Translations under genes and position numbers: made by a program
Notes under the pieces: model-generated
What the model saw: only the letters and a program-made list of their open reading frames with translations
Told to the model about the DNA's origin: nothing
Database searches by the model: none
In this document: one piece after another, positions 54,029 through 54,067 of the stretch
Layout of the letters: each line of letters begins with the position of its first letter
Position numbering within the stretch: the first letter of the stretch is position 1
Assembly: GCA_016708565.1 (NCBI GenBank)
Contig: JADJFN010000037.1
Location: forward strand, 64,001-128,000
DNA length: 64,000 nucleotides
Origin: Myxococcales bacterium
GTDB lineage: Bacteria; Myxococcota_A; Polyangia; Haliangiales; Haliangiaceae
Reading direction: 5' to 3'

Positions 54029-54067
54029 GGTTTGGGGAGATCGGCGGCGAGGGCGGCGTACTATCTG
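54029..54067 (+). promoter_or_regulatory. conserved promoter-like motif upstream of DUF4157 gene 2
   Basis: ggtttggggagatcggcggcgagggcggcgtactatctg. The TACTAT element lies 72 nt upstream of the ATG. Possible ECF-type -35 GGAGAT and -10 CGTAC spacing. Confidence 0.4.

Follow-up and report, generated by a model that had tools for sequence, protein, structure and literature searches.

A conserved two-box, promoter-like motif precedes DUF4157 toxin-like genes in a Myxococcales bacterium and its relatives

We analysed a 64-kb stretch of DNA from a Myxococcales bacterium (64,000 nucleotides, hereafter the window) and found that the motif GGnAGATC-N14-CGTAsTmT occurs in it three times, against 0.01 copies expected, and that each copy lies on the coding strand, 23-66 nt upstream of one gene of the PF13699 (DUF4157) family. 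All three sequences that a first-pass annotation had quoted as common to these genes are present. We consider it probable that the element is a promoter read by an ECF-type sigma factor encoded outside the window, which would switch dispersed DUF4157 toxins as one regulon. Promoter activity, the identity of the sigma factor and co-regulation are what we infer from comparative evidence, namely the conservation and position of the motif, the specificity with which it precedes DUF4157 genes, and the tie between a sister motif and an ECF sigma family.

The three DUF4157 genes and their setting

The window has a GC content of about 72%, and its nearest relatives are uncultured Myxococcota, mainly Kofleriaceae/Haliangiales MAGs. 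Pfam identified PF13699 (formerly DUF4157, now named eCIS_core) in three forward-strand genes, all of which exceed the gathering cut-off of 22 bits: gene 1 at 35719-38193 (824 aa; E = 5.5e-15, 55.7 bits), gene 2 at 54131-57205 (1024 aa; E = 2.5e-12, 47.2 bits) and gene 3 at 60808-63915 (1035 aa; E = 5.9e-08, 33.2 bits). The HExxH motif is present in all three proteins as HEAAH. Gene 1 has a GC3 of 0.95 and begins with a GTG at 35719 that is preceded by the Shine-Dalgarno-like run GGGGGA. For gene 2, the gene calls of public assemblies (locus L260) agree on the start, and gene 3 has an alternative ATG at 60769 that would give a protein of 1048 aa. The part that gene 1 has in common with genes 2 and 3 is the N-terminal ~200 aa only (53% identity). 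Genes 2 and 3 are paralogous, with 55% identity at the N-terminus, 57% over the C-terminal ~510 aa and unrelated middles, and the N-terminal 11 residues of gene 3 can be aligned with 11 residues of gene 2. Taken together, the three genes look like modular polymorphic toxins.

The remaining window genes encode polysaccharide export functions, TPR/HEAT proteins, PhoD, housekeeping enzymes and a retron. Pfam searches of the window ORFs found no phage-tail-like genes (sheath, tube, baseplate or spike) that would mark an eCIS locus, and no obvious regulator among the ORFs other than the three toxin-like genes. A phmmer search with RpoE and SigW likewise found no sigma factor gene in the window.

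Three further regions of the window were recorded. The gene set of a type XIII retron is complete by PADLOC at 19576-25097 on the forward strand, comprising HEAT-ARM_XIII (19576-21510; 1.8e-157), SWIM_XIII (about 21.5-23.2 kb; 3.5e-167) and RT_XIII (23448-25097; 1.6e-154, also matched by Pfam RVT_1), all on the forward strand, and Rfam gave zero matches over 19576-25097. Between toxin genes 2 and 3, GC3 in the region 57202-60700 drops to an unusual 0.71-0.75, and hardly any ORF there matches a known family; the C-terminus of one of its ORFs (57202-58092) is weakly kinase-like and resembles PADLOC mad6 and PD-T4-6 (1.7e-9), and the region may code for immunity or accessory functions or have been acquired recently. 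In the 902-aa forward-strand frame at 16832-19540, the Obg GTPase domains GTP1_OBG and MMR_HSR1 cover only residues 569-851 and the N-terminal ~560 codons have an odd codon-position GC (GC2 up to 0.84), so that this ORF is probably over-extended or overlaps another gene.

The motif in the window

We scanned the whole window with AGATC-N14-CGTASTMT, allowing at most one mismatch and taking the expectation from 100 dinucleotide shuffles. The scan returned exactly three matches against 0.01 expected, all on the forward strand, at 35669-35695, 54038-54064 and 60722-60748. Because this pattern had been drawn from the three sites themselves, we added an unbiased search, in which the three 150-nt upstream regions were compared for their best ungapped triple of 32 nt. 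The best triple had 19 identical columns, compared with 12.9 +/- 0.8 (maximum 16) in 60 shuffled sets, and the upstream regions of other window genes reached 11-15 identical columns (40 triples, 32 nt).

Motif 1 occupies 35664-35695 (+), with the -35-like box GGGGAGATC at 35665-35673 and the -10-like box CGTACTCT at 35688-35695. Motif 2 occupies 54033-54064 (+) and has the same -35-like box, GGGGAGATC, at 54034-54042 and the -10-like box CGTACTAT at 54057-54064. Motif 3 occupies 60717-60748 (+), with AGGTAGATC at 60718-60726 and CGTAGTAT at 60741-60748. The spacer is 14 nt in each, and CGTA is present in all three copies. Scored with the position weight matrix (PWM) of the wider family described below, motifs 1, 2 and 3 reached 23.1, 27.8 and 27.4, respectively. 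Transcription is predicted to start near 35702, 54071 and 60755.

From the last base of the -10-like box, the start codon lies 23 nt away in gene 1 (GTG 35719), 66 nt in gene 2 (ATG 54131) and 59 nt in gene 3 (ATG 60808), or 20 nt if gene 3 starts at ATG 60769. The distance of 65-72 nt that the first-pass annotation had given for two of the loci is therefore approximate. Its coordinates for the second and third copies are exact, and its first copy is one base off, the 34-mer occupying 35662-35695 and not 35661-35694.

Conservation in related loci and metagenomes

The comparison set consisted of 80 loci with relatives of the N-terminal domain (one genome per species, 857 kb, both strands). The exact window pattern gave no matches in these loci because its strict AGATC and T.T were too narrow, and looser scans found the family. 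With the consensus drawn from the window alone and at most two mismatches allowed, five matches were obtained, all on the coding strand and within 200 nt upstream of a DUF4157 match. This target zone makes up about 2% of the search space, and the reversed-sequence control gave one match.

An iterative PWM built on 18 clean sites gave the family consensus (G)GGnAG(G/A)T(C)-N14-CGTAn(T)AT, in which GG, G and CGTA are invariant (CGTA in 18 of 18 aligned sites) and A, T, A and T near-invariant. The motif was found upstream of about 20 DUF4157 genes in Kofleriaceae/Haliangiales MAGs. Counting the window together with the loci, a site is present at about 21 of 91 DUF4157 ORFs, or about a quarter, and not every such gene within one MAG has it. 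Additional high-scoring sites stand in L014, before a second DUF4157 gene, and in L018, before an operon of two genes of which the last is a DUF4157 gene. Counts based on the PWM are partly circular; the scan of the 80 loci with the window consensus, the unbiased triple search and the motif-first metagenome scan described next are not.

We scanned metagenomes with GGGRAGRTC-N14-CGTASTAT and obtained at least 119 matches, most of them in low-GC DNA, where they are evidently due to chance. Among the matches listed, about 23 lie in contigs of at least 65% GC; in L145, L186, L191, L193 and L243 the motif is followed by a DUF4157 domain, and in L198 by an N-terminus like those of window genes 2 and 3. 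All six of these matches are in contigs of at least 66% GC. L186 and L191 (to L001) and L243 (to the window) are orthologues of known sites, and L145, L193 and L198 are new. About 0.06% of ordinary genes encode DUF4157 (PMC11297309), a frequency at which about 0.01 such metagenome matches would be expected by chance. As a negative control, a similar pattern was run on viral contigs, where none of 59 matches (low-GC chance matches) had DUF4157 downstream. A DUF4157 search of viral contigs (IMG/VR) yielded three loci, none with a strong motif, and supplied no eCIS operons.

One of the metagenome contigs, L243, comes from a sister strain and is 95.6% identical to the window over 4.6 kb. The block of motif 2 is 100% conserved in it, and the flanks are conserved at about 91%. 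L243 also carries an insertion of about 1.5 kb (4627-6115) between the phoD stop codon and the putative gene-2 promoter, corresponding to window position ~53912/53914, and this insertion leaves the motif still attached to the counterpart of gene 2.

ECF sigma factors near DUF4157 genes and a sister motif

The first-pass annotation had read the element as an ECF-like promoter served by a dedicated sigma factor or regulator, and had proposed a search for ECF sigma/anti-sigma pairs near other DUF4157 loci. With RpoE and SigW as phmmer queries, an ECF sigma gene was found near only 5 of the 80 loci. The five proteins are mutually 25-35% identical, except those of L074 and L078 (47%), and so are not a single set of orthologues. 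No sigma gene was found downstream of the metagenome motif matches listed. As the window has no sigma gene and those in the five loci are mostly unrelated, the idea of an adjacent dedicated sigma factor fails: such a pair is absent from the window and from the neighbourhood of most motif-bearing loci. The search was nevertheless productive in part, since L074 and L078 led to a sister motif.

When the flanking ORFs of the 80 loci were clustered, the recurrent neighbours were limited to an AAA ATPase (6 loci), Ser/Thr kinases and ECF sigma factors, and eCIS structural genes did not recur. The ATPase gene encodes an AAA+ protein of about 675 aa, which may resemble the eCIS Afp15/Pvc15 type, and lies directly upstream of DUF4157 genes in L001 (3832-5856), L002 (3650-5674), L016, L033, L045 and L055. 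No sheath, tube or baseplate genes were found within 6 kb in these six loci. In L001 and L002, a putative promoter of the window type sits between the ATPase gene and the toxin gene.

The sister motif, GGAAGAWY-N13(12)-CGTC (GGAAGATC-N13-CGTC), has the same -35 box as the window motif. It occurs five times in L074 (0.01 expected) and four times in L078; the L074 copies precede the sigma gene, a divergent small gene, two DUF4157 genes and a further conserved gene. The exact sister pattern was found in only 13 of 275 loci, and 11 of these 13 carry a gene of the ECF sigma family. A divergent pair of sister motifs stands at the sigma gene in L074, L265, L268, L269, L271 and L274, and the motif lies directly before DUF4157 genes in L074, L078 and L271, ending in L271 only 8 nt before the DUF4157 start codon. 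The sigma-proximal copies overlap a possible N-terminal coding extension, in which GC3 is low. Across all sites, a spacer of 14 pairs with CGTA and a spacer of 12-13 with CGTC, and the -35 box is common to both classes.

The sigma family of the L074 type comprises 411 proteins at E <= 1e-15, the best 120 of the 411 at 63-85% identity. Its arrangement recurs in eight further contigs: a small divergent gene faces the sigma gene, which is followed by a CHAT-domain/ZAS-like protein of about 940 aa, and the sister motif stands between the two divergent genes as a divergent pair. Loci with this ECF sigma/CHAT module include L074 (2260-2435 and 10332-10400), L078, L265 (9545-9700), L268 (1-175 and 3436-3960), L269, L271 (6556-6633) and L274. 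Next to the module, PF13699 genes are found in L265, which has three, and in L271. Conservation of the sigma-4 recognition helix extends over the whole family and takes in a tandem paralogue in L271. By position and layout, the sister motif is demonstrably tied to an ECF sigma family linked to DUF4157 genes, as its putative autoregulatory promoter. Because the sister motif combines the same -35 box with ECF sigma promoters, the ECF-like reading of the window motif gains support. The sister class and its sigma gene are both absent from the window.

Other features of these loci were also noted. L271 contains a second, tandem sigma/zf-HC2 pair, and further members of the sister-motif regulon include a conserved protein starting MSASGRFVAIRRD. 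A B-like site in the sigma intergenic region of L266 was discounted as a by-product of a palindromic spacer.

Agreement with and departures from ECF promoters

CGT is a hallmark of ECF -10 elements, and in the window class CGTA is invariant. The spacing also agrees with the 16-17 nt usual for ECF promoters, with 17 nt from GGnAG to CGT and 14 nt from box to box in every strong site. The -35 box departs from the GGAAC or 'AAC' core, since its consensus is GGnAG(G/A)TC with an invariant G at the C position, and the -10 box, CGTAnTAT, is longer than a typical ECF -10. The ECF-like description of the first-pass annotation is supported in part: two-box behaviour and spacing agree with it and the sister motif strengthens it, but the -35 box is no canonical GGAAC and the -10 box is longer than usual.

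As a rule, ECF sigmas control their own expression and are encoded together with their targets. An adjacent, autoregulated cognate sigma was found for the sister N13/CGTC motif only: upstream of all the sigma orthologues examined, the N14/CGTA class was absent, and the eight further contigs all had N13/CGTC. ECF32 is an exception to the usual pattern, as it controls a secretion system and is not autoregulated (PMC7826278).

Promoter-like geometry and alternative explanations

More than 20 copies of the motif lie in one orientation, with L015 as the single exception. In the relatives, the first in-frame start is found 7-60 nt past the -10 box, often behind an AGGAG or GGGAG ribosome-binding site, start codons in MAG genes being uncertain. 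In L014 (3341-3349), L053 (2562-2570) and L055 (3415-3423), the DUF4157 ATG follows the -10-like box at exactly 7 nt, an arrangement that implies leaderless mRNAs. In the very GC-rich intergenic DNA, AT-richness is confined to the -10-like box. Within the explanation that we hold probable as a whole, including the ECF sigma factor and the regulon, the element would be a two-box promoter with a start about 7 nt after the second box.

The main rival is a promoter of the housekeeping sigma factor SigA, assisted by a class II activator, which could also account for two boxes. TAnTAT would then be an ordinary -10 element, and GGnAG(G/A)TC an activator site over the -35 position. Taken alone, the TAnTAT part is compatible with a housekeeping -10 hexamer, fitting TATAAT at T1, A2, A5 and T6, the positions that matter most; the other box is unlike TTGACA, as it would be in activator-dependent promoters, and most loci have no neighbouring dedicated sigma. 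However, the CG that invariably precedes TA directly and the one strictly kept spacer length are features typical of ECF recognition, and the -35 box is single and asymmetric without dyad symmetry, which is unusual for dimeric activators. Nor is there a conserved regulator gene nearby, a GerE/NarL search of the 80 loci having found one LuxR-type ORF. We regard activation of a SigA promoter as rather unlikely, because the same -35 box is paired with a classical ECF -10 (CGTC) at the putatively autoregulated promoters of an ECF sigma family that is linked to the same gene family in the same lineage.

The motif might instead bind a protein, as an operator does, without acting as a promoter itself, for instance as a repressor site or as a site that functions in both orientations. 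A strong copy in L015 (3248-3279, minus strand; PWM score 25.5) fits this proposal, as it stands in inverted orientation some 90 nt before a DUF4157 gene. This copy points into the 3' end of a co-directional gene; it may reflect an inversion in the assembly, act as an antisense promoter or be a site that is indifferent to orientation. Against an operator stand the uniform orientation of the other copies, their short fixed distance to the starts, the three at the exact leaderless distance, and the combination of an AT-rich -10-like box in a 72% GC genome with an unconstrained spacer of fixed length. In addition, the three intergenic regions gave no sign of another promoter: a consensus scan for sigma-70-type promoters (TTGACA/TATAAT, 16-18 nt spacer) found no sites in 53500-61000 and 35300-38500. 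We consider an operator improbable.

Shared ancestry without function would make the motif a relic that had travelled with the 5' end of a toxin cassette during duplication or recombination. Genes 2 and 3 are indeed paralogues with alignable leaders, and several metagenome matches are the orthologues named above (L186 and L191 with L001, L243 with the window). Gene 1, however, has the same boxes with a different leader, distance (23 nt versus 59-66 nt) and N-terminus, and sites occur in many MAGs before DUF4157 genes with different N-terminal types. In an anchored ungapped comparison, the similarity around AGATC is limited to about 35-40 nt (about -10 to +30) and falls to background outside in all three pairs; upstream of the motif, not even the paralogous genes 2 and 3 resemble each other in sequence. 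Since the similarity ends at about 35 nt, the motif is not the edge of a duplication, and the longer duplicated segment that the first-pass annotation had named as the case against selection was not found. Among 22 sites, the mean pairwise identity was 0.67 in the -35 box and 0.79 in the -10 box and only 0.34 in the spacer, for which base composition predicts 0.33. Conserved boxes around a random spacer of fixed length are the signature of two protein-contacted boxes, and a mere relic is very improbable. A structured RNA in the 5' leader (riboswitch, attenuator or small RNA), for which the 59-66 nt leaders of genes 2 and 3 with some conserved stretches might speak, has hardly any probability left, given no gathering-level Rfam match over the whole window, leaders of the three genes no more stable than shuffles (z = -0.15, +0.70 and +0.58), conserved boxes upstream of the predicted transcript and relatives of which some would be leaderless.

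A proposed model for the regulation of dispersed toxin genes

According to the ECF promoter model, the -35-like GGnAG(G/A)TC, 14 unconstrained bases and the -10-like CGTAn(T)AT would be recognised together as a promoter. The reader of such N14/CGTA promoters would be an alternative ECF-type (group 4) sigma factor whose gene lies outside the window. The three window toxin genes and similar dispersed toxin genes of Kofleriaceae/Haliangiales would then be turned on together as one regulon. The candidate regulator is a member or paralogue of the ECF sigma family that stands in an operon with a large CHAT-domain (anti-sigma-like) protein, and the most economical model would have such a member or paralogue read the three window promoters. 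Co-regulation of the three genes by a dedicated factor, as the first-pass annotation had proposed, would follow from this model.

More tentatively, there may be a two-class ECF code, in which the sigma/CHAT module uses GGAAGATC-N13-CGTC and the same or a paralogous sigma uses GGnAGRTC-N14-CGTAnTAT on orphan toxins. The tandem sigma pair of L271 makes a paralogous sigma for the N14 class conceivable. We think this code possible, though on balance doubtful. If it were true, the motif would tag new effectors throughout the genome in the way that the hrp box tags those of type III systems, and would offer a handle on the signal for toxin firing, which the CHAT protease-like anti-sigma would sense.

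Hundreds of predicted contractile-injection-system toxins are marked by DUF4157, and some of their genes are orphans far from any injection machine. A conserved promoter tag would allow co-regulated effectors and accessory genes to be predicted from sequence only in uncultured Myxococcota. The motif also points to a candidate family of regulators, ECF sigmas that have a CHAT-domain protein as partner, and gives a reporter-testable hypothesis on when these predators deploy their toxins.

Comparison with known systems

The element would be of an ordinary kind, an alternative-sigma promoter, and its mechanism is not new. Known ECF promoters include the Bacillus subtilis SigW promoter (TGAAAC-N16-CGTA) and the EcfG type (GGAAC-N16-CGTT). 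Like ECF (group 4) promoters, the window motif has two short boxes, a -10 opening with CGT, a rigid spacer and a small specialised set of genes. It differs from them in a -35 box without AAC, in a -10 extended to CGTAnTAT, and in that no adjacent sigma/anti-sigma pair was found in the window or at most loci, nor an autoregulated sigma of its own class among the orthologues examined. The sister motif is closer, as it has the identical -35, a -10 beginning with CGT and a position before DUF4157 genes of the same lineage, including a leaderless case. Its spacer is 13 (12) instead of 14, its CGTC lacks the TAT extension, and at the sigma gene it stands as a divergent, putatively autoregulatory pair.

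Among the known eCIS regulators are GerE/LuxR-type, BTAD and RfaH-like proteins encoded beside eCIS operons (Geller et al. 2021, PMC8213781). They control the same functional class, the DUF4157-marked eCIS-associated toxins. These regulators are adjacent genes without a published DUF4157 cis motif, whereas the feature described here is a cis motif on orphan toxin genes, and GerE-type neighbours are essentially absent from the 80 loci. In a full-text literature search, DUF4157 appeared as an eCIS core and toxin marker, the regulators named were adjacent GerE/LuxR, BTAD and RfaH-type ones only, and no promoter motif or sigma factor for DUF4157 genes was found.

The hrp box of type III effectors in Pseudomonas syringae and Erwinia, GGAACC-N16-CCACNNA, is read by HrpL (ECF32). 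Consensus, phylum and secretion system differ from ours, and the delivery machine, eCIS or other, is absent from the window. The likeness to the proposed model lies in one ECF sigma serving scattered secretion-related effectors, each with its own promoter box, and in a sigma that is not autoregulated and need not adjoin its targets (for the ECF32 context, see PMC7826278).
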